A stretch of 44,703 bases of DNA from a virus (IMGVR_UViG_2718218308_000001); one strand, 5' to 3'. Shown: positions 3,114 to 44,703, counted from the first letter of the stretch. Numbers and translations: made by a program. The notes: a model not told the origin generated them from the letters alone.

Positions 3114-3238
3114 GCCCTTTGTCGTCAGGTATTCGCAGATATATTTGTTCAGTGCTATGGGATCTTTGTGAATTGATCTTACCCAGCAATAGTGGACACG
3201 CGGCTAAGTGAGTAAACTCTCAGTCAGAGGTGACTCAC

Positions 3239-3538
3239 ATGACAAAAACAGTATCAACCAGTAAAAAACCCCGTAAACAGCATTCGCCTGAATTTCGCAG
3301 TGAAGCCCTGAAGCTTGCTGAACGCATCGGTGTTACTGCCGCAGCCCGTGAACTCAGCCTGTATGAATCACAACTCTACAACTGGCGCAGTAAACAGCAA
3401 AATCAGCAGACGTCTTCTGAACGTGAACTGGAGATGTCTACCGAGATTGCACGTCTCAAACGCCAGCTGGCAGAACGGGATGAAGAGCTGGCTATCCTCC
3501 AAAAGGCCGCGACATACTTCGCGAAGCGCCTGAAATGA
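3239..3538 (+). CDS. insE: IS3 transposase OrfA (InsE)
   Basis: 99-aa product [32 protein letters not shown]... with helix-turn-helix region; overlaps orfB as in IS3-family elements. Confidence 0.9.
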
Positions 3539-4401
3539 AGTATGTCTTTATTGAAAAACATCAGGCTGAGTTCAGCATCAAAGCAATGTGCCGCGTGCTC
3601 CGGGTGGCCCGCAGCGGCTGGTATACGTGGTGTCAGCGGCGGACAAGGATAAGCACGCGTCAGCAGTTCCGCCAACACTGCGACAGCGTTGTCCTCGCGG
3701 CTTTTACCCGGTCAAAACAGCGTTACGGTGCCCCACGCCTGACGGATGAACTGCGTGCTCAGGGTTACCCCTTTAACGTAAAAACCGTGGCGGCAAGCCT
3801 GCGCCGTCAGGGACTGAGGGCAAAGGCCTCCCGGAAGTTCAGCCCGGTCAGCTACCGCGCACACGGCCTGCCTGTGTCAGAAAATCTGTTGGAGCAGGAT
3901 TTTTACGCCAGTGGCCCGAACCAGAAGTGGGCAGGAGACATCACGTACTTACGTACAGATGAAGGCTGGCTGTATCTGGCAGTGGTCATTGACCTGTGGT
4001 CACGTGCCGTTATTGGCTGGTCAATGTCGCCACGCATGACGGCGCAACTGGCCTGCGATGCCCTGCAGATGGCGCTGTGGCGGCGTAAGAGGCCCCGGAA
4101 CGTTATCGTTCACACGGACCGTGGAGGCCAGTACTGTTCAGCAGATTATCAGGCGCAACTGAAGCGGCATAATCTGCGTGGAAGTATGAGCGCAAAAGGT
4201 TGCTGCTACGATAATGCCTGCGTGGAAAGCTTCTTTCATTCGCTGAAAGTGGAATGTATCCATGGAGAACACTTTATCAGCCGGGAAATAATGCGGGCAA
4301 CGGTGTTTAATTATATCGAATGTGATTACAATCGGTGGCGGCGGCACAGTTGGTGTGGCGGCCTCAGTCCGGAACAATTTGAAAACAAGAACCTCGCTTA
4401 G
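3535..4401 (+). CDS. insF: IS3 transposase OrfB (InsF), DDE integrase-like catalytic domain
   Basis: 288-aa ORF overlapping orfA in another frame; contains DDE-type residues (WAGDITY...HTDRGGQY...[10 protein letters not shown]). Confidence 0.9.
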
Positions 4402-4431
4402 GCCTGTGTCCATATTACGTGGGTAGGATCA

Positions 4432-4686
4432 CGTGGAAGTATGAGCGCAAAAGGTTGCTGCTACGATAATGCCTGCGTGGAAAGCTTCTTTCATTCGCTG
4501 AAAGTGGAATGTATCCATGGAGAACACTTTATCAGCCGGGAAATAATGCGGGCAACGGTGTTTAATTATATCGAATGTGATTACAATCGGTGGCGGCGGC
4601 ACAGTTGGTGTGGCGGCCTCAGTCCGGAACAATTTGAAAACAAGAACCTCGCTTAGGCCTGTGTCCATATTACGTGGGTAGGATCA
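4432..4686 (+). mobile_element. Partial IS3: tandem duplicate of the 3'-terminal 255 bp
   Basis: 4432..4686 repeats 4177..4431 (the insF 3' end plus right terminal repeat) immediately after the complete element. ORFs 4441..4656 (+) and 4429..4668 (-) are artefacts of this duplication. Confidence 0.85.
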
Positions 4687-4846
4687 CACCTCATGCCCCA
4701 GATGTTTTTTGTTTTCAGGAGAAAACTATATCGCAGAACTACGAACTAAACTTATGTCATAACTCATGCAAAAAACTCTTCGGCTAAACATTAAAAAAAT
4801 CTTATAATGCGAATCATATTTTGTTACATGTTCAGGAGCGCAAAGG

Positions 4847-13076: not shown

Positions 13077-13271
13077 ATGACTCAAGACTATGAACTGGTT
13101 GTGAAAGGAGTCCGTAATTTTGAGAATAAAGTTACGGTAACTGTAGCCTTACAGGACAAAGAACGCTTTGACGGTGAAATTTTTGACCTGGATGTCGCCA
13201 TGGACCGTGTTGAAGGAGCTGCGCTGGAGTTTTATGAGGCAGCAGCCAGAAGGAGCGTCCGGCAAGTCTGA
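13077..13271 (+). pseudogene. ydfR: ydfR-like lysis-cassette gene interrupted by IS3
   Basis: 64-aa ORF whose stop codon TGA is formed by the first bases of IS3; the same frame resumes after the IS for a further 38 codons (14527..14643), restoring an ORF of about 102 aa. Confidence 0.7.
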
Positions 13272-13333
13272 TCTTACCCAGCAATAGTGGACACGCGGCT
13301 AAGTGAGTAAACTCTCAGTCAGAGGTGACTCAC

Positions 13334-13633
13334 ATGACAAAAACAGTATCAACCAGTAAAAAACCCCGTAAACAGCATTCGCCTGAATTTCGCAGTGAAG
13401 CCCTGAAGCTTGCTGAACGCATCGGTGTTACTGCCGCAGCCCGTGAACTCAGCCTGTATGAATCACAACTCTACAACTGGCGCAGTAAACAGCAAAATCA
13501 GCAGACGTCTTCTGAACGTGAACTGGAGATGTCTACCGAGATTGCACGTCTCAAACGCCAGCTGGCAGAACGGGATGAAGAGCTGGCTATCCTCCAAAAG
13601 GCCGCGACATACTTCGCGAAGCGCCTGAAATGA
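13334..13633 (+). CDS. insE: IS3 transposase OrfA (InsE), copy 2
   Basis: Same protein as copy 1. Confidence 0.9.
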
Positions 13634-14496
13634 AGTATGTCTTTATTGAAAAACATCAGGCTGAGTTCAGCATCAAAGCAATGTGCCGCGTGCTCCGGGT
13701 GGCCCGCAGCGGCTGGTATACGTGGTGTCAGCGGCGGACAAGGATAAGCACGCGTCAGCAGTTCCGCCAACACTGCGACAGCGTTGTCCTCGCGGCTTTT
13801 ACCCGGTCAAAACAGCGTTACGGTGCCCCACGCCTGACGGATGAACTGCGTGCTCAGGGTTACCCCTTTAACGTAAAAACCGTGGCGGCAAGCCTGCGCC
13901 GTCAGGGACTGAGGGCAAAGGCCTCCCGGAAGTTCAGCCCGGTCAGCTACCGCGCACACGGCCTGCCTGTGTCAGAAAATCTGTTGGAGCAGGATTTTTA
14001 CGCCAGTGGCCCGAACCAGAAGTGGGCAGGAGACATCACGTACTTACGTACAGATGAAGGCTGGCTGTATCTGGCAGTGGTCATTGACCTGTGGTCACGT
14101 GCCGTTATTGGCTGGTCAATGTCGCCACGCATGACGGCGCAACTGGCCTGCGATGCCCTGCAGATGGCGCTGTGGCGGCGTAAGAGGCCCCGGAACGTTA
14201 TCGTTCACACGGACCGTGGAGGCCAGTACTGTTCAGCAGATTATCAGGCGCAACTGAAGCGGCATAATCTGCGTGGAAGTATGAGCGCAAAAGGTTGCTG
14301 CTACGATAATGCCTGCGTGGAAAGCTTCTTTCATTCGCTGAAAGTGGAATGTATCCATGGAGAACACTTTATCAGCCGGGAAATAATGCGGGCAACGGTG
14401 TTTAATTATATCGAATGTGATTACAATCGGTGGCGGCGGCACAGTTGGTGTGGCGGCCTCAGTCCGGAACAATTTGAAAACAAGAACCTCGCTTAG
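13630..14496 (+). CDS. insF: IS3 transposase OrfB (InsF), copy 2
   Basis: Same protein as copy 1. Confidence 0.9.
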
Positions 14497-14645
14497 GCCT
14501 GTGTCCATATTACGTGGGTAGGATCAGTCTTCCTGGAAGTAGCAGAAAAATTGTCAGAAAAAGTTGAGTCTTATCTGCAGCATCAGTACTCCTTTAAGAT
14601 TGAAAATCCTGCCAATAAGCACGAGCGTCCTCATCATAAATATAT

Positions 14646-23893: not shown

Positions 23894-24226
23894 ATGACGA
23901 GCAAAGAAACCTTTACCCATTACCAGCCGCTGGGCAACAGTGACCCGGCTCATACCGCAACCGCGCCCGGCGGGTTGAGTGCGAAAGCGCCTGCAATGAC
24001 CCCGCTGATGCTGGACACCTCCACCCGTAAGCTGGTTGCGTGGGATGGCACCACCGACGGTGCTGCCGTTGGCATTCTTGCAGTTGCTGCTGACCAGACC
24101 AGCACCACACTGACGTTCTACAAGTCCGGCACGTTCCGTTATGAGGATGTGCTCTGGCCGGAGGCTGCCAGCGACGAGACGAAAAAACGGACCGCGTTTG
24201 CCGGAACGGCAATCAGCATCGTTTAA
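23894..24226 (+). CDS. D: Head decoration protein D
   Basis: 110-aa product [27 protein letters not shown]... matches lambda gpD. Confidence 0.9.
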
Positions 24227-24281
24227 CCTGACCCTTCATCACTAAAGGCCGCCTGTGCGGCTTTTTTTACGGGATTTTTTT

Positions 24282-33664: not shown

Positions 33665-37066
<3,402 letters not shown>

Positions 37067-37084
37067 ATTTTATAACCCAGAACG

Positions 37085-37108
37085 GGCGTCAGAAATGACG
37101 CCTTTTTT
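37085..37108 (+). terminator. Rho-independent terminator between J and lom
   Basis: Hairpin GGCGTCA-GAAA-TGACGCC followed by TTTTTT. Confidence 0.6.
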
Positions 37109-37132
37109 ATTGCAGAAAAGCGAGAGGTAATT

Positions 37133-37732
37133 ATGCGTAAACTTTATGCCGCCATTTTGTCCGCAGCCATTTGTCTGGCCGTATCCGGTGCGCCTGCATG
37201 GGCGTCTGAACATCAGTCCACGCTGAGCGCGGGCTATCTTCATGCCTCGACGAACGTTTCCGGCAGCGATGATCTGAACGGGATTAACGTGAAATACCGT
37301 TATGAGTTTACGGACACGCTGGGAATGGTGACGTCATTCAGCTATGCAGGAGACAAGAATCGCCAGCTTACCCGTTACAGCGATACCCGCTGGCATGAAG
37401 ATTCCGTGCGTAACCGCTGGTTCAGCGTAATGGCGGGGCCGTCTGTGCGCGTGAATGAATGGTTCAGCGCGTATGCGATGGCGGGTGTGGCTTACAGCCG
37501 TGTGTCGACTTTCTCCGGGGATTATCTCCGCGTAATTGACAACAAGGGGAAAACGCACGACGTGCTGACCGGAAGTGATGACGGTCGCCACAGCAACACG
37601 TCTCTGGCGTGGGGAGCTGGCGTGCAGTTTAACCCGACCGAATCCGTGGCCATTGATATTGCTTATGAAGGCTCCGGCAGTGGTGACTGGCGCACTGACG
37701 GTTTCATCGTGGGTGTCGGTTATAAATTCTGA
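37133..37732 (+). CDS. lom: Outer-membrane beta-barrel protein Lom (Ail/OmpX family)
   Basis: 199-aa ORF with signal peptide and C-terminal aromatic residue (YKF); lambda lom position. Confidence 0.9.
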
Positions 37733-37759
37733 TTAGCCAGGTAACACAGTGTTATGACA

Positions 37760-37785
37760 GCCCGCCGGTTCAGGCGGGCTTTTTT
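37760..37785 (+). terminator. Rho-independent terminator after lom
   Basis: Hairpin GCCCGCC-GGTTCAG-GCGGGC followed by TTTTTT. Confidence 0.6.
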
Positions 37786-37790
37786 GTGGG

Positions 37791-40700
37791 ATGAATATGG
37801 CAGTAAAGATTTCAGGTGTACTGAAAGACGGCACAGGAAAACCGGTACAGAACTGCACAATCCAGCTGAAAGCAAAACGTAACAGTACCACTGTGGTGGT
37901 GAACACGCTGGCCTCAGAAAATCCGGATGAAGCCGGGCGTTACAGCATGGACGTTGAGTACGGTCAGTACAGCGTTATTCTGTTGGTGGAAGGATTCCCG
38001 CCGTCACATGCCGGGACCATCACCGTGTATGAAGATTCTCAACCCGGTACGCTGAATGATTTTCTCGGTGCCATGACGGAGGATGATGCCCGTCCGGAGG
38101 CACTGCGCCGTTTTGAACTGATGGTGGAAGAGGTGGCGCGTAACGCGTCCGCGGTGGCACAGAACACGGCAGCCGCGAAGAAGTCAGCCAGTGATGCCAG
38201 CACATCAGCCCGTGAGGCGGCAACCCATGCGGCTGATGCTGCGGACTCAGCACGCGCAGCCAGCACGTCAGCCGGACAGGCCGCGTCGTCGGCTCAGTCA
38301 GCGTCTTCCAGCGCAGGAACGGCATCAACAAAGGCCACTGAAGCCTCAAAAAGTGCTGCCGCTGCAGAGTCCTCAAAAAGCGCGGCGGCCACCAGTGCCG
38401 GTGCGGCGAAAACGTCAGAAACGAATGCGGCAGCGTCAGAACAATCAGCCGCCACTTCTGCATCCACCGCGACCACGAAAGCGTCAGAAGCAGCCACTTC
38501 AGCACGGGATGCGTCGGCTTCAAAAGAGGCGGCAAAATCATCAGAAACGAGCGCAGCCTCGAGCGCCAGTAGTGCAGCCTCCTCGGCAACAGCGGCAGGA
38601 AATTCCGCGAAGGCGGCAAAAACGTCCGAGACGAACGCCAGGTCTTCTGAGACGGCAGCGGGACAGAGCGCCTCAGCTGCGGCAGGCTCAAAAACAGCGG
38701 CTGCGTCGTCTGCCAGTGCCGCGTCAACAAGTGCCGGGCAGGCCTCAATCAGTGCCACCGCAGCCGGAAAATCGGCAGAAAGCGCCGCATCATCCGCTTC
38801 AACAGCCACAACGAAGGCTGGCGAAGCCGCTGAACAGGCCAGCGCAGCAGCGAGGTCTGCATCCGCAGCGATGACATCCGAAACGAACGCGAAAGCCTCG
38901 GAAACCAGTGCAGAATCCTCAAAAATGGCAGCTGCATCGTCCGCCAGTTCGGCGGCGTCATCGGCATCATCTGCGTCTGCTTCAAAAGATGAGGCGAGCA
39001 GACAGGCATCAGCAGCGAAAGGCAGCGCCACGACGGCATCCACGAAGGCGACAGAGGCAGCTGGTAGTGCGACGGCGGCAGCTCAGAGCAAAAGTACGGC
39101 GGAATCCGCGGCAACGCGCGCCGAGACAGCAGCAAAACGGGCAGAGGATATTGCATCCGCCGTGGCGCTTGAGGATGCGAGCACGACGAAAAAGGGGATA
39201 GTACAGCTCAGCAGTGCGACCAACAGCACTTCCGAGTCACTGGCGGCAACGCCAAAAGCCGTTAAGGCCGCGTATGACCTGGCTAACGGGAAATACACCG
39301 CACAGGATGCAACGACAGCACAGAAAGGGATAATCCAGCTAAGCAGCGCGACCAACAGCACGTCTGAAACGCTGGCGGCAACGCCAAAGGCAGTAAAAGC
39401 AGCCAATGACAATGCTGAGAAACGTCTGCAGAAAGATCAGAACGGTGCGGATATCCCTGGCAAAGACACCTTTACGAAAAATATTGGTGCCTGCCGTGCC
39501 TTCGGTGGGTCAGTAAGCACAACAACAGGAAACTGGACGACTGCACAGTTTATCGAGTGGCTGGATTCTCAGGGAGCATTTAACCATCCATACTGGATGT
39601 GCAAGGGTTCCTGGTCTTATGGCAATAATAAAATCATTACTGATACTGGCTGCGGTAATATTCATCTCGCCGGAGCTGTCATTGAAGTAATGGGGATAAA
39701 GTCAGCGATGACGATCCGCATTACCACACCGACCACCTCCACTGGTGGTGGAACAACTAACGCCCAGTTTACCTATATTAATCACGGAACAGATTATTCA
39801 CCTGGCTGGCGAAGGGACTATAACTCCAGAAATAAGCCAACGGCATCAGAGATCGGGGCGTTACCGTCAGGTGGAACAGCAGTATCATCAGTTAATCTGT
39901 CTTCAAAAGGTCGGGTAACCGCGCTGACAGACAATACGCAGGGGGCAACAGGTCTTGAGTTATACGAGGTGTATAACAACGGATATCCAACAGCGTATGG
40001 AAATATCATTCACCTGAAAGGGATGACAGCCGTTGGCGAAGGTGAGTTACTCATCGGCTGGAGTGGTACAAGCGGTGCTCATGCTCCGGCATTTATTCGT
40101 TCACGACGGGATACGACCGACGCAAACTGGTCGCCGTGGGCGCAGCTTTACACCTCGGCTCATCCTCCTGCAGAGTTTTATCCAGTCGGTGCACCAATCC
40201 CGTGGCCATCAGATACCGTTCCGTCTGGTTATGCCCTGATGCAGGGGCAGACTTTTGACAAATCTGCTTACCCGAAACTTGCAGCCGCTTATCCGTCAGG
40301 CGTGATCCCTGATATGCGTGGCTGGACGATTAAGGGCAAGCCCGCCAGTGATCGAGCCGTATTGTCTCAGGAACAGGACGGCATTAAATCACACACCCAC
40401 AGCGCCAGCGTATCCAGTACGGATTTGGGGACGAAAACCACATCGTCGTTTGATTACGGCACTAAATCCACGAATAACACTGGTGCGCATACCCATAGTG
40501 TTAGCGGTACGGCTGCTTCAGCCGGTGCACATACCCATTCGATGACATTTGTTTCAGGTGGTTCCAGTGGTGCTCCGGGAAGTGGATCACCTGATTATTC
40601 TAAATACAGTGTTAACACTTCTTCTGCAGGCGCTCATACGCACTCTGTATCGGGTACTGCTGCAAGCGCAGGTGCACACGCACATACTGTCGGTATTGGT

Positions 40701-40820
40701 GCTCATACGCACTCCGTTGCGATTGGTTCACATGGACATACCATCACCGTTAACGCTGCTGGTAACGCGGAAAACACCGTCAAAAACATCGCATTTAACT
40801 ATATTGTGAGGCTTGCATAA
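37791..40820 (+). CDS. stf: Side tail fibre protein Stf
   Basis: 1009-aa ORF after lom; long Ala/Ser/Thr-rich repetitive shaft; C-terminal region with repeated GAHTHS / HxH motifs. Confidence 0.9.
38100..39130 (+). repeat. Coding low-complexity tandem-repeat region inside stf (Ala/Ser/Thr-rich units)
   Basis: Recurring units such as SASSAS...AAKTSETNA...SE(T/S)SA; every frame on both strands is open here, which generates the long spurious ORFs in the track. Confidence 0.8.
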
Positions 40821-41395
40821 TGGCATTCAGAATGAGTGAACAACCACGGACCATAAAAATTTATAATCTGCTGGCCGGAACTAATGAATTTATTGGTGAA
40901 GGTGACGCATATATTCCGCCTCATACAGGTCTGCCAGCAAACAGTATCGATATTGCACCGCCAGATATTCCGGCAGGCTTCGTGGCTGTTTTCAACAGTG
41001 ATGAGGCATCGTGGCATCTCGTTGAAGATCATCGGGGTAAAACGGTTTATGACGTGGCTTCCGGCGACGCGTTATTTATTTCTGAACTCGGTCCGTTACC
41101 GGAAAATGTTACCTGGTTATCGCCGGGAGGGGAATATCAGAAGTGGAACGGCACAGCCTGGGTGAAGGATACGGAAGCAGAAAAACTGTTCCGGATCCGG
41201 GAGGCGGAAGAAACAAAAAACAGCCTGATGCAGGTAGCCAGTGAGCATATTGCGCCGCTTCAGGATGCTGCAGATCTGGAAATTGCAACGGAGGAAGAAA
41301 TCTCGTTGCTGGAAGCATGGAAAAAGTATCGGGTATTGCTGAACCGTGTTGATACGTCAACTGAACAGGATATTGAATGGCCAGCACTGCCGTAG
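40820..41395 (+). CDS. tfa: Tail fibre assembly protein Tfa
   Basis: 191-aa ORF immediately after stf with overlapping stop/start. Confidence 0.85.
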
Positions 41396-41492
41396 GGTAA
41401 AACATATAAATTCTATAATTAGATGTATCTTTCCATTTACGGCAAGGAAGGTGGCTTGGAAGACGTAAAGCATCTCACACCGAGATTATTTT

Positions 41493-42083
41493 TTATATGT
41501 CAGGTGTCTGAAGTTTTGCTTTGGCTCTTAAAATGGTTTGCCGCGAGGTTTTGAATTCCCGGGCAATGGCACTTATACTTACACCTGACTTAATTCGTTC
41601 GAATACCACCTGTTTCTGTTCTTCATTTAACACAGGTGGTCGACCAAAACGTTTCCCTGCGCCCCGGGCTCTTACTATCCCGGAATGAGTGCGTTCAAGT
41701 AAAAGGTCTCGTTCAAATTCAGCGACTGCTGAAATTACTTGCATCATCATTTTTCCTGTTGGACTGGTCAGGTCAATGCCCCCCAATGCTAAGCAATGCA
41801 CTCTGATACCTGTTTCGGTCAGTTGTTCCACTGTTTTCCTGATATCCATTGCATTACAACCAAGGCGATCCAGTTTTGTCACAATCAATTGATCACCACA
41901 TTTCAGGCGAGCAAGCAACCGGTTAAAACCAGGACGCTCACTGGTTGCTGCTGAGCCGCTAATGTGTTCTTCGATTATTTGCTGAGGTTTGATTTTAAAA
42001 CCTGCACTTTCGATTTCCCGGCGTTGATTTTCGGTGGTCTGATCCAGCGTTGATATCCGACAGTAAGCAAAAATTCGAGACAT
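41493..42083 (-). CDS. pin: Serine DNA invertase, Pin family
   Basis: 196-aa product [29 protein letters not shown]... with N-terminal catalytic serine motif and C-terminal helix-turn-helix; matches PinQ/PinR as I recall them. Confidence 0.9.
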
Positions 42084-42399
42084 AGTGAGACTCTATACGA
42101 AATTGGTGTTCATATCATAATGCATCTCAGAAAATAATTTTGATTATTTTTGTGCATATTTGTATGTACACGTTCGAAAATAAACGAATGCGTATGCAAC
42201 CCCGTAATTTTGGTGAGACCCAAAATCGATTTTGTGAAAAATGGCTTTAACTCGGTTTGTTTTTCGAGTTCCGGGCGGACTCAAGGAAGAAGAATAGTGT
42301 TGCGTGTTATTTTAACCAGATTTCAAGTTGTTTGGTCGTGGAAAAGTGGAGCAAAATGTTGTTAAAGTGGAAAAATGATAAAAAAGTAAGTTTATTATA

Positions 42400-42666
42400 T
42401 TACATTTTACCATTTAAATTTTGGTTGTCTTTAAGAACTGATATCGCTGTTTGTAATAATTCTTTGTTATCCAGCCATGATTTTTTCTTTATGTTTCCTT
42501 CAATGTAATCAAGCAATGTTCTGGTATTGATAGGTCTTCCCTGTTTTGCTACTTCCACTACAGCATCCCCTAGGATAATTCTTACTTCAGGAAGCTGCGC
42601 AGGGAACCACTTTAGGGTGTCTTTTGATTTCATGAAGATATTCCTTAAAATATTATTGATTTTCAT
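42400..42666 (-). CDS. ydfK: Small prophage protein YdfK/YnaE-like
   Basis: ORF containing MKSKDTLKWFPAQLPEVRIILGDAVVEVAKQG...; the true start is probably the internal Met (giving 42400..42633). Confidence 0.6.
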   Translation of the reverse strand: MKINNILRNIFMKSKDTLKWFPAQLPEVRIILGDAVVEVAKQGRPINTRTLLDYIEGNIKKKSWLDNKELLQTAISVLKDNQNLNGKM

Positions 42667-43419
42667 TGCGATATTGTATGTCTGATTCAGGATATGTTGA
42701 CTTATACATCGGTTTTGTCTGGGTTATTGGATATGCCAATCCCTAATTTTATTAGGGCATGACTAAAAATGCTGAATATGATAAGGAGAGATGTGATTAT
42801 CAGTATGCTGTTCATATAGCCTCGAATTAGTAATGTGTTATATATGATATAGTTGACAATTTTTATCTTGGGTGTTCTTAAAGTTCGTAGATAAACATTG
42901 TCGTTTCAGGTATACAGGAATGCTAACAGGTGGCAGCAAAAATCAGGCGGTTTATGGCGCAAGCTGAAGCGGCAACTGCAAACTATCTTATGCAGAGACT
43001 CTACACGGATTGGGTTTAAAAGTATACATAGATAACAGTTTTTATCTGAAAAATAAAAATATCAAGGTGATATAGCCTATATGCCTTTGATGCGGAGGAA
43101 TGAATGTGATGGGAGTGATGTATCTGAATAGTTGAAAAACCGCAGACACGCCTTATGCAAGAACGTGCTGCGGTTGGCTGGTAAATTTTTCGATAGTGTG
43201 AGTATTGAATGATTTCCAGCCGTTCTTGATTTTACGCATAAATCCATGAAAAAACTACTTATCTGTTGGGGAGTTTTTTTTGGGGCATATATGGGACAGA
43301 AATAGGCCCCAGATAGACACTGAGATCGAACTTAGGATGCTTTTTAAAAAATGCAACTATCTGAAAAAACCTAGAAAACGCCAAGGAAACCACAGGATGG
43401 GAAAAAACACCTGTGAATT

Positions 43420-44703
43420 ATGGATTTCCAGTTATATTCGCTCGGCGCAGCGTTAGTGTTTCATGAAATATTTTTTCCTGAATCATCAACGGCAATGGCG
43501 TTAATTCTGGCAATGGGAACCTACGGTGCAGGTTATGTGGCGCGTATTGTCGGAGCATTTATTTTCGGCAAAATGGGCGACAGAATAGGGCGTAAAAAAG
43601 TGCTCTTTATTACCATCACCATGATGGGGATCTGTACCACCTTAATTGGTGTGTTACCGACCTATGCACAGATTGGTATTTTTGCACCCATCTTGCTGGT
43701 GACGTTGCGTATTATTCAGGGGTTGGGTGCAGGTGCGGAAATTTCCGGTGCCGGTACGATGCTGGCGGAATATGCGCCAAAAGGTAAGCGCGGAATTATC
43801 TCCTCATTTGTGGCTATGGGAACTAACTGCGGAACCTTGAGCGCAACGGCAATCTGGGCCTTTATGTTCTTCATTCTCAGTAAAGAGGAACTGCTGGCGT
43901 GGGGATGGCGTATACCGTTCCTGGCGAGCGTTGTCGTGATGGTCTTTGCTATCTGGTTGCGTATGAATCTGAAAGAAAGCCCGGTCTTTGAGAAGGTTAA
44001 CGACAGTAACCAACCGACAGCAAAACCTGCACCTGCTGGTAGCATGTTCCAGAGCAAATCCTTCTGGCTGGCAACAGGGCTGCGTTTTGGTCAGGCGGGT
44101 AACTCCGGGTTAATTCAGACTTTCCTTGCAGGCTATTTAGTGCAGACGTTATTGTTTAACAAAGCAATTCCAACAGATGCATTGATGATCAGTTCGATTC
44201 TCGGCTTTATGACCATTCCGTTCCTTGGTTGGTTATCCGATAAAATTGGTCGCCGGATCCCGTATATTATTATGAATACCTCCGCGATTGTGCTGGCATG
44301 GCCAATGCTTTCTATCATTGTAGATAAAAGCTATGCCCCGAGCACCATTATGGTTGCACTGATTGTGATTCATAACTGTGCGGTGCTGGGATTATTTGCT
44401 CTGGAAAACATTACCATGGCAGAAATGTTCGGCTGTAAAAACCGCTTTACCCGGATGGCTATTTCTAAAGAAATTGGTGGTCTTATCGCTTCCGGTTTTG
44501 GTCCTATCCTGGCGGGTATTTTCTGCACCATGACGGAATCCTGGTATCCGATCGCCATTATGATCATGGCATATTCAGTGATTGGTTTAATCTCTGCGCT
44601 GAAAATGCCAGAGGTGAAAGACCGTGATTTAAGTGCGCTGGAAGACGCTGCGGAAGATCAACCGCGTGTTGTAAGAGCTGCGCAACCTTCCAGAAGTCTG
44701 TAA
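43420..44703 (+). CDS. ydfJ: MFS transporter (YdfJ-like), 5'-truncated at the prophage junction
   Basis: 427-aa ORF with the MFS signature GDRIGRKK after only about one and a half transmembrane segments, so the first helix is missing. Confidence 0.8.
   Translation: MDFQLYSLGAALVFHEIFFPESSTAMALILAMGTYGAGYVARIVGAFIFGKMGDRIGRKKVLFITITMMGICTTLIGVLPTYAQIGIFAPILLVTLRIIQGLGAGAEISGAGTMLAEYAPKGKRGIISSFVAMGTNCGTLSATAIWAFMFFILSKEELLAWGWRIPFLASVVVMVFAIWLRMNLKESPVFEKVNDSNQPTAKPAPAGSMFQSKSFWLATGLRFGQAGNSGLIQTFLAGYLVQTLLFNKAIPTDALMISSILGFMTIPFLGWLSDKIGRRIPYIIMNTSAIVLAWPMLSIIVDKSYAPSTIMVALIVIHNCAVLGLFALENITMAEMFGCKNRFTRMAISKEIGGLIASGFGPILAGIFCTMTESWYPIAIMIMAYSVIGLISALKMPEVKDRDLSALEDAAEDQPRVVRAAQPSRSL

Follow-up and report, generated by a model that had tools for sequence, protein, structure and literature searches.

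Organization of the stf-tfa-pin locus

The viral sequence IMGVR_UViG_2718218308_000001 (44,703 nucleotides, referred to in its entirety as the window) contains a side tail fibre gene and its chaperone gene, with a gene for a small serine recombinase, pin, lying directly behind them on the opposite strand. The fibre gene stf (37791-40820, plus strand) encodes a protein of 1009 residues with the Pfam domains phage_tail_N, Phage_fiber_2 and Collar; tfa (40820-41395, plus strand) encodes a tail fibre assembly chaperone of 191 residues (Caudo_TAP, E=1.4e-41); and pin (41493-42083, minus strand) encodes 196 residues with Resolvase (PF00239, E=2.5e-36) and HTH_7 (PF02796, E=3.8e-11) domains. A sequence-only reading of this DNA had described the last gene as a Pin-family invertase placed as in prophages in which such enzymes invert the C-terminal segments of fibres, and had pointed to two palindromes upstream of it as a possible operator or degenerate recombination site. 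All of the features it listed are present, including a serine recombinase in the position and on the strand given, but the invertase label does not hold and the palindromes occur at chance frequency. Our analysis leads us to conclude, with a good deal of confidence, that the stf-tfa pair of an ordinary Rac/Qin-type prophage has behind it a decayed mini-transposon of the Tn3 family, that the gene called pin is the resolvase of this element, and that no fibre switching takes place at the locus.

Pin is related to Tn3-family resolvases

The Din invertases (Gin, Cin, Pin and Hin) are ~60-70% identical to one another. The window protein shares 37.7% identity with PinE of the e14 prophage, as compared to 77-84% with TnpR proteins from transposons and plasmids (Tn3 family), and is 100% and 99% identical to its Escherichia coli K-12 counterparts, PinR of the Rac prophage and PinQ of Qin, respectively. 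Its scores against Gin and gamma-delta resolvase are 105 and 83 bits, respectively, and NCBIfam has no specific family for it, all matches being below the cut-off. The recognition helix of its helix-turn-helix (HTH) domain is essentially that of the transposon relatives (TTRQTILRVK). In Shewanella (locus L017), a 77% identical homologue is divergent from the gene for a 1033-residue protein with DDE_Tnp_Tn3 (E=1.4e-148) and DUF4158 domains, and the unit is bounded by 56-nucleotide inverted repeats (IRs) beginning GGGGTCCGCTTGGAAAACGGAAAATATCCTACGCTAAG. An 84% identical relative is found on E. coli ColV-type plasmids; homologues of the same identity occur in a tnpA-res-tnpR-IR arrangement on the E. 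coli plasmid pUTAK-18-1 (L035) and, on the plasmid locus L007, in a minimal IR-spacer-res-tnpR-IR element of 852 bp, and at two further loci (L019 and L020) the homologue likewise lies beside a Tn3-family transposase. When one genome per species was scanned, relatives of 60-78% identity appeared in Shewanella, Photorhabdus, Erwinia, Budvicia, Mycoavidus and others, none of which adjoins fibre genes. Judged by these relationships, pin appears to be a resolvase gene whose product, a small serine recombinase, belongs to the Tn3-family TnpR lineage and not to the Gin/Cin/Pin/Hin family.

A side observation concerns Erwinia oleae (L021, 1280-2649), where two divergent paralogous resolvase genes, 72% and 78% identical to the window Pin, face each other across a ~200-bp gap that holds two complete back-to-back res arrays; the arrangement is seen as a 566-nucleotide, 74% inverted repeat.

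pin lies beside the remnant of a res array and between decayed transposon ends

Relatives of Pin carry six TGT[A/C]CGAAA half-sites upstream of the gene, at -115/-98, -75/-52 and -34/-21, which make up three subsites, with a TATAAT-like -10 element separating subsite II from subsite III; a res of the Tn3 family is laid out in the same way. The region upstream of the window pin is colinear with these arrays and keeps four of the six half-sites in register, each with one or two mismatches as compared to none or one in transposon copies. A res profile built from nine foreign res regions has a single match in the 44.7-kb window, at 42091-42179 (nhmmer, E=2.8e-7). All three subsites can be traced on the minus strand: the remnant of subsite III (42093-42115) adjoins the -10-like TATGAT of the pin promoter and retains the half-site TATACGAAA with one mismatch, the remnant of subsite II (42124-42157) has two mismatches in both of its half-sites around the dyad centre AAAATAAT-TTTG-ATTATTTT, and in the remnant of subsite I, where crossover takes place (42170-42197), the right half has two mismatches and the left half is destroyed (4/9 mismatches). 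The half-site spacing of res site I is 9+8+9, which differs from the 12+2+12 of the e14 crossover site, pix. The proposal that a degenerate recombination site lies upstream of pin was correct in spirit, the degenerate site being the res array at 42093-42197 and not the palindromes themselves.

The array and the gene are in turn enclosed by decayed terminal repeats. A profile built from eleven foreign terminal repeats has exactly two matches in the window (nhmmer; the next match has E=4), and these flank pin in inverted orientation with their outer ends outward. The tnpR-proximal repeat (41450-41484, plus strand; nhmmer E=3.2e-3 at 41454-41495) matches the L017 repeat at 24/38 positions, the best ungapped match in the window, and aligns to the right-end repeats of both L007 and L017, while the res-proximal repeat (42245-42283, minus strand; nhmmer E=8.5e-4 at 42237-42280) is second best with 23/38. 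Measured by its terminal repeats, the element occupies 41450-42283 (834 bp). Copies of AGGAA at 41445-41449 and 42284-42288 form a putative 5-bp target-site duplication, which abuts both ends only if a 3-bp loss in one repeat tip is accepted. Identity between the flanks extends to the 8 bp CAAGGAAG (41443-41450), for which P is ~0.005 when a shared 8-mer is sought between two 20-mers of local composition. In L037, an E. coli allele of the region, the repeat tip ...CCCC is kept directly before TTCCT, which supports the boundary. Lambda was considered as a representative of the empty site and rejected, as it diverges 10 bp before the tfa stop codon, and insertion sequences are so frequent in the plasmid contexts of L007-type elements that independent duplications cannot be recognized there.

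Tn3-family elements have 38-bp repeats and produce 5-bp duplications, and non-autonomous members composed of res and a resolvase gene have been described under the name TIME-RES (Szuplewska et al. 2014, PMC4133298). The window element resembles these in its ~38-bp GGGG...TAAG-type terminal repeats, the putative 5-bp direct repeat at its flanks, its AT-rich target and the lack of a transposase gene, and it shares with Tn3-type res-tnpR modules a resolvase gene that follows a three-subsite res overlapping its promoter, its nearest protein relatives being encoded beside DDE_Tnp_Tn3 transposases. It differs in being a fossil: its terminal repeats agree with the consensus at ~61-63% of positions, res site I is without its left half, the equivalents of Arg71 and Glu56 in the resolvase are Cys and Lys, and the element is fixed at one site in a phage module instead of being multicopy. 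We propose that an 834-bp non-autonomous element of the Tn3 family, TIME-RES-like in its layout (terminal inverted repeat, short spacer, res with subsites I, II and III, tnpR, terminal inverted repeat) and devoid of transposase, would have inserted into the AT-rich spacer between tfa and ydfK, probably by transposition in trans, leaving the AGGAA duplication behind. The insertion is old and fixed in the phage module.

Decay of the DNA sites and lesions in the protein

Identity between the window element and the plasmid element L007 is 83% in the coding sequence, 69% and 72% in the terminal repeats, 71% in res and 54% in the spacer. The coding sequences are separated by a synonymous divergence (dS) of 0.59, with a ratio of nonsynonymous to synonymous divergence (dN/dS) of 0.16; res and the repeats have diverged about as much as silent sites, which indicates that the DNA sites drifted approximately neutrally while the open reading frame (ORF) was conserved. 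By dN distances, and with L017 taken as outgroup, the prophage branch has accumulated ~2.6 times more amino acid changes than that of the plasmids. Within the prophage clade dN/dS is 0.38, and the window Pin departs from 106 relatives at 12 positions where their conservation is at least 97%.

Catalytic competence was judged by the reference residues Y6, R8, S10, D36, R68 and R71. The window Pin has Y7, R9, S11 and R73, carries E39 in place of D36 as does the whole clade, and has C76 in place of R71. The motif DRLGR, present in 112 of 120 retrieved homologues, has become DRLGC, its last residue, Cys76, being aligned with Arg71 in gamma-delta and Tn3 resolvase. Among these homologues DRLGC occurs in five sequences, all of them prophage-type alleles from E. 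coli (85-100% identical to the window Pin), and K-12 PinR and PinQ carry it too. When Arg71 of Tn3 resolvase is replaced (R71A and R71K), recombination is abolished and the rate of cleavage is cut ~1000-fold (PMC2794168). As Cys76 is common to two alleles separated by a dS of 0.21, the change is old and tolerated. A second change, Lys61, is polymorphic in the clade and occupies the position of Glu56 in the 2-3' interface, where the double change R2A/E56K deprives wild-type resolvase of res x res recombination (PMC2602789). E61K also corresponds to the 'E56K' of activated Tn3 resolvases, and we considered Pin as a hyperactive, accessory-site-independent variant; this reading was dropped because R2A/E56K disrupts the 2-3' interface instead of activating the enzyme and because E61K is not fixed in the clade.

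Comparison with characterized resolvases thus suggests that Pin would have lost the catalytic Arg71 (now Cys) and, in the window allele, the Glu56 on which the res synaptosome depends (now Lys). It is probably a crippled, cis-orphan resolvase, as are probably K-12 PinR and PinQ, and would at best be a very weak catalyst. The terminal repeats and res would have decayed at approximately the neutral rate since insertion, with crossover subsite I deprived of one half-site, and the element would no longer be able to move or to resolve. Given decayed sites and a crippled protein, nothing in cis should be invertible or resolvable, and the fibre genes would therefore not be under recombinational control.

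Two alleles show further variation. K-12 PinQ (L002) combines Lys61 and Cys76 with Gln at codon 3, the equivalent of Arg2, which also belongs to the 2-3' interface, whereas PinR and the window Pin keep Arg. In the allele L037 (E. coli contig ABGHOB010000148.1), compared over window positions 41390-42250, the Pin protein is 85% identical (dS 0.21) and the flanks ~98%, so that the coding region is far more diverged than its surroundings, with Cys76 and Lys61 kept; this pattern suggests gene conversion or recombination confined to the ORF.

The locus has no detectable invertible segment

Searches of the whole window with Stf and Tfa (tblastn) found no second Stf C-terminus and no second tfa on either strand; with e14 as a positive control, both fibre/chaperone sets were recovered. 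No inverted repeats above chance level flank stf-tfa or pin, as judged by an inverted-repeat search of 37000-43500 and self-BLAST at word size 7. The gix/hix consensus has no match in the window with up to three mismatches, and the best scores of pix-type (12+2+12) and res-type (9+8+9 and 9+14+9) dyads over the whole window equal those of Markov-shuffled sequence. The best pix-type dyad, at 39455-39480, has seven mismatches, equal to random expectation. The pix sites of e14, which served as positive control, form a 21-nucleotide, 95% inverted repeat 1797 nucleotides apart, and both have zero mismatches in the dyad scan. The E. coli, Shigella and phage copies that we fetched are all colinear from tfa to ydfK, and a published BLAST survey found inversions in e14 only and none in Qin or Rac (Kirigo et al. 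2025, PMC12529663).

Alignment to Mu S/S' (8JU3, 5YVQ) places the stf codons for F-T-K-N-I-G-A (39469-39494, plus strand) at the position of gix or pix in the fibre genes of Mu and e14. The junction of constant and variable regions reads NLGL in Mu and e14, where pix encodes ENLGLGE, and KNIGA in the window Stf. A single half-site-like stretch is left (TTTACGAAAA), which protein homology explains and which the best pix-type dyad overlaps; this is no usable crossover site. The stretch looks like the fossil of a fibre-gene crossover position that is unrelated to the adjacent pin.

The Din systems (Mu Gin/gix, P1 Cin/cix, e14 Pin/pix and Salmonella Hin/hix) resemble the locus in having a small Resolvase plus HTH_7 recombinase beside tail fibre genes; in addition, Stf has a module in common with Mu S/S', and action in trans on pix has been reported in print. 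In contrast to them, the window has neither an invertible segment nor a pair of 26-bp crossover sites, its pin points towards tfa and sits inside transposon ends, and the ancestral sites of its recombinase are of the res type with three subsites, whereas Din systems use two sites and a Fis-bound enhancer in cis, usually located in the 5' part of the invertase gene. By sequence, the locus therefore appears to hold no invertible segment and no fibre-switching system. The sequence-only reading had found no convincing pair of gix-like sites around stf-tfa, allowed that pin might be an orphan, and recognized in the fibre the HxH pattern of metal-binding tips; on these points we agree with it, having found no partner site, alternative fibre segment or inverted repeats. 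Its assignment of pin to the Din family, and of the gene's adjacency to a fibre-inversion system, fared less well, as pin would be the cargo of a Tn3-derived mini-transposon and its position no relic of inversion.

The palindromes upstream of pin probably belong to the decayed transposon end

Both of the overlapping palindromes that had drawn attention are present. The first, ATTTTGG-N6-CCAAAAT (42207-42226), has 7-bp arms and a 6-nucleotide spacer, and the second is the perfect 14-mer CAAAATCGATTTTG (42221-42234). Both fall within the 47-bp spacer that separates res subsite I (42170-42197) from the res-proximal terminal repeat (42245-42283). In intact transposons, the counterpart of the first part of this spacer is the extended inner portion of the terminal repeat. 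The homologous spacer of L007 has a weak dyad only, and both palindromes are broken in a diverged E. coli copy (L028). The window contains three perfect palindromes of at least 14 bp, with 2.8 +/- 1.5 expected. Within the 317-bp region upstream of pin (34% G+C), inverted repeats are mildly enriched (P 0.01-0.04), one of those counted being the dyad centre of res subsite II. Of the nine positions of the family half-site, 3-4 are not matched by the palindrome arms CA[C/A]AAAA, with the recognition helix unchanged. A hairpin or terminator reading was rejected, since the RNA fold of the stretch is no better than that of shuffles (z = -0.93) and a terminator scan found no terminator-like site there. 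We regard the palindromes as part of the decayed transposon end and not as a site. Over the whole window, there are 55 short, perfect inverted repeats of the hairpin type (arms of 7 bp or more, spacer of 8 nucleotides or less), as compared to 26 +/- 6 in first-order Markov simulations; prophage terminators and operators are likely contributors to this excess.

The side tail fibre

Stf is a mosaic of a lambda-Stf N-terminus, an Ala/Ser-rich shaft, Phage_fiber_2 repeats, a Mu S/S'-like middle and a T4 gp37-like tip. It is longer than lambda Stf, as had been noted, which is unremarkable in a family whose K-12 member StfR has 1120 residues. In DNA, the window stf is 87-94% identical to lambda stf segments and the window tfa 94% identical to lambda tfa, and the C-terminal Stf ORF of lambda is 86-94% identical to parts of the window tip and tfa. 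Upstream of the tip, Stf has matches to Mu (8JU3, 5YVQ), namely to the constant region of S and to the variable domain of S'. The receptor-binding tip domain (residues 796-1009; 40176-40817, plus strand) is homologous to the tip of T4 gp37: the last 214 residues align end to end with PDB 2XGF (phmmer, E=1.1e-86; residues 326-539 of the Stf C-terminal half, used as query, with chain residues 28-242). The observation that Stf ends in units with the HxH pattern of metal-coordinating fibre tips is sound, as the tip has seven HxH motifs (residues 868-983; 40392-40745), comprising KSHTHS, four GAHTHS, GAHAHT and GSHGHT, and all seven HxH motifs of T4 gp37 align with them. In T4 gp37, seven iron ions are held by the HxH motifs, which have been noted for lambda as well (PMC11705849); we count eight in the C-terminal ORF of lambda Stf. 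The seven motifs from three Stf chains would be expected to coordinate metal ions in a receptor-binding needle of the gp37 type; Tfa is the folding chaperone of Stf. The likeness to T4 thus comprises the end-to-end homology over 214 residues, the seven aligned motifs and a chaperone gene directly downstream, the relationship of Stf to Tfa in lambda and of gp37 to gp38 in T4. The window tip differs in that the shaft which carries it is of the lambda Stf type and has a middle domain resembling Mu S'. It also differs in its central loop region (residues ~920-950), and receptor specificity may therefore differ. The fibre part of the locus, that is, the Stf mosaic, the HxH tip and Tfa, is already known biology.

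The surrounding prophage

Upstream of stf lie J (33668-37066, plus strand) and lom (37133-37732, plus strand). Beyond the inserted element follow a ydfK/ynaE homologue (42400-42666, minus strand), which is a phage gene and not part of the element, and a truncated ydfJ (from 43420, plus strand). The 4 kb from 39400 to 43420 are 100% identical to E. coli O80:H26 strain EC-107, where they are annotated as phage tail protein, tfaQ, pinQ, ydfK, ynfT and ydfJ, and parts of this interval are matched in 5402 of 5426 complete E. coli genomes. The gene order agrees with that of K-12 Rac (stfR-tfaR-pinR-ynaE) and Qin (stfQ-tfaQ-pinQ-ydfK) and recurs in the live phages 2H10 and Kati, in which stf and tfa face pin and ydfK and the recombinase is 99-100% identical. 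The locus forms the right end of the tail module in a lambdoid prophage of the Rac/Qin type, which is integrated at ydfJ. K-12 PinR and PinQ agree with the window in their flanks, decayed res, decayed terminal repeats and Cys76, and the K-12 prophages show no difference of substance, the window prophage being apparently complete.

Phage Kati (L005) contains at 3921-4073 a second, partial tfa 3' end (residues 141-191, 80% identity), ~2.6 kb past pin and ydfK and oriented as the full tfa. In many E. coli genomes, homology to the window breaks inside the tfa 3' end (~41276-41284), which seems to be a recombination joint for exchange of the pin-ydfK module. Between ydfK/ynfT and the ydfJ junction, 96 bp (43140-43235) are 82% identical to the lambda b-region (24162-24256); this is a lone patch of lambda homology with unrelated DNA around it. 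Elsewhere in the window, 3174-4431 and 13269-14526 are 1258-bp direct repeats, 100% identical, each of which carries the two transposase genes of an IS3-family element, orfA (HTH_Tnp_1) and orfB (rve); next to the first copy, the end of the element is duplicated in tandem over 256 bp (4177-4432 and 4432-4687). Identical insertion sequences 10 kb apart in a prophage could mediate loss of the intervening segment.

Discussion

We have described pin as the resolvase gene of a decayed element, and other accounts of the locus have to be weighed against this. That Pin is a Din-family invertase which inverts, or once inverted, the C-terminal part of stf-tfa in cis to switch host range, as in Mu, P1 and e14, with sites now too degenerate to be seen, is suggested by the recombinase gene adjoining stf and tfa and by the Stf stretch homologous to the Mu S constant/variable junction, the site of gix, at which the top pix-type dyad falls. 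That dyad, however, scores no better than the best of random sequence, an alternative Sv'/tfa' and inverted repeats are both missing, the protein is far closer to TnpR proteins than to PinE, the gene sits with its own res between Tn3-type terminal repeats, and no inversions were seen in Qin or Rac in the published survey. This account is already largely refuted, and we give it next to no credence. It is also very improbable that the res-pin cassette still works as a multimer or cointegrate resolution system for the phage or prophage. The intact ORF under constraint (dN/dS 0.16-0.38), the four half-sites in register and a homologue in Erwinia phage LS-2018a with an intact-looking res would fit such a role, but crossover subsite I is without its left half, every half-site that is kept carries 1-2 mismatches, as compared to 0-1 in transposon copies, and Pin has the equivalents of the R71C and E56K changes. 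Lambdoid phages are not known to need dimer resolution for packaging, which we also count against a working system. As for the palindromes, their being a functional operator, for autoregulation by Pin or for another regulator, or an accessory protein site of the element is unlikely. Their stretch is 100% conserved between the window and the L037 allele, in which the coding sequence has diverged to 85% protein identity, L007 keeps a weaker dyad at the same place, and inverted repeats are mildly enriched upstream of pin; against this stand the chance-level number of palindromes in the window, the 3-4 mismatched positions in arms that face an unchanged recognition helix, the disruption in L028, the lack of an RNA structure signal or terminator-like site, and the position of the stretch beyond the span of the res model.

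Of greater weight is a report on PinQ, over-production of which was accompanied by 88% inverted e14 P segment, as compared to 26-30% in controls, and by protection against phage T2 (Kirigo et al. 2025, PMC12529663). Resistance to T2 depends on stfP/stfE, and pinQ/pinR are induced 14-fold by T2 (PMC12529663). These data, together with the conserved HTH recognition helix, are the grounds for a reading in which Pin is a fully active invertase acting in trans, its substrate being an e14-like P segment elsewhere and the resulting chimeric Stf blocking T2 adsorption, so that local sites are irrelevant. Table S4 of the same study points the other way: deletion of pinE with pinQ and pinR intact leaves 1.5% inverted, and deletion of pinQ gives 22% as compared to 30% in the wild type (PMC12529663), from which it follows that PinE is the catalyst at native levels and accounts for essentially all inversion. 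Over-production of PinQ in a pinE deletion background is not reported there (PMC12529663), the protein has Cys for the catalytic Arg71 and Lys for Glu56, and the spacing of res site I departs from that of pix. We consider a fully active trans-acting invertase possible, although not likely; PinQ may be a weak enzyme when over-produced, or may act indirectly. In a related and equally tentative proposal, proteins of the PinR/PinQ type in Rac/Qin-like lambdoid phages would be domesticated Tn3-family resolvases that have lost their sites, Arg71 and, in most alleles, the 2-3' contact, but that selection has preserved; they may act as a DNA-binding 'pseudo-recombinase', which could modulate PinE-catalysed inversion at pix, or repress transcription, instead of catalysing.

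Several points weigh against our own conclusion that pin is the resolvase of a dead mini-transposon. The reading frame is uninterrupted, thousands of genomes as well as live phages carry it in near-identical form, and Cys76 has been kept across a dS of 0.21; an intact, conserved ORF argues for a retained function and not for a dead gene. If PinQ is the catalyst in the experiments of Kirigo et al. (2025), Cys76 does not abolish activity. The repeat tips are decayed, and the exact boundaries and the 5-bp duplication hinge on the 3-bp loss in one tip, an ungapped alignment moving that end by 3 bp. Lastly, the empty site, represented by a synthetic junction of the tfa and ydfK flanks, was not found in 5426 E. 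coli genomes or 50,697 phage records, and we therefore infer transposition from the repeats and the duplication without having seen it.

With these points taken into account, the 'Pin' of Rac and Qin may be re-identified as a fossil res-tnpR cassette of the Tn3 family with a crippled active site; the literature we searched contained no paper linking pinR or pinQ with Tn3. The pin region occurs in nearly every E. coli genome (5402 of 5426), including K-12 as pinR and pinQ, and has been annotated for decades as 'Pin invertase'. That no invertible segment has ever been found beside pinR or pinQ would be explained by the gene being the resolvase of a dead Tn3-derived mini-transposon, and an 'invertase beside tail fibre' should accordingly not be read as host-range switching when prophages are annotated. 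The finding also raises a concrete and testable question about the study of Kirigo et al. (2025, PMC12529663), according to which PinQ is itself the catalyst of e14 P segment inversion and thereby provides a defence against phage, and the pseudo-recombinase proposal, if true, would change the mechanistic account of the reported defence of PinQ against T2.

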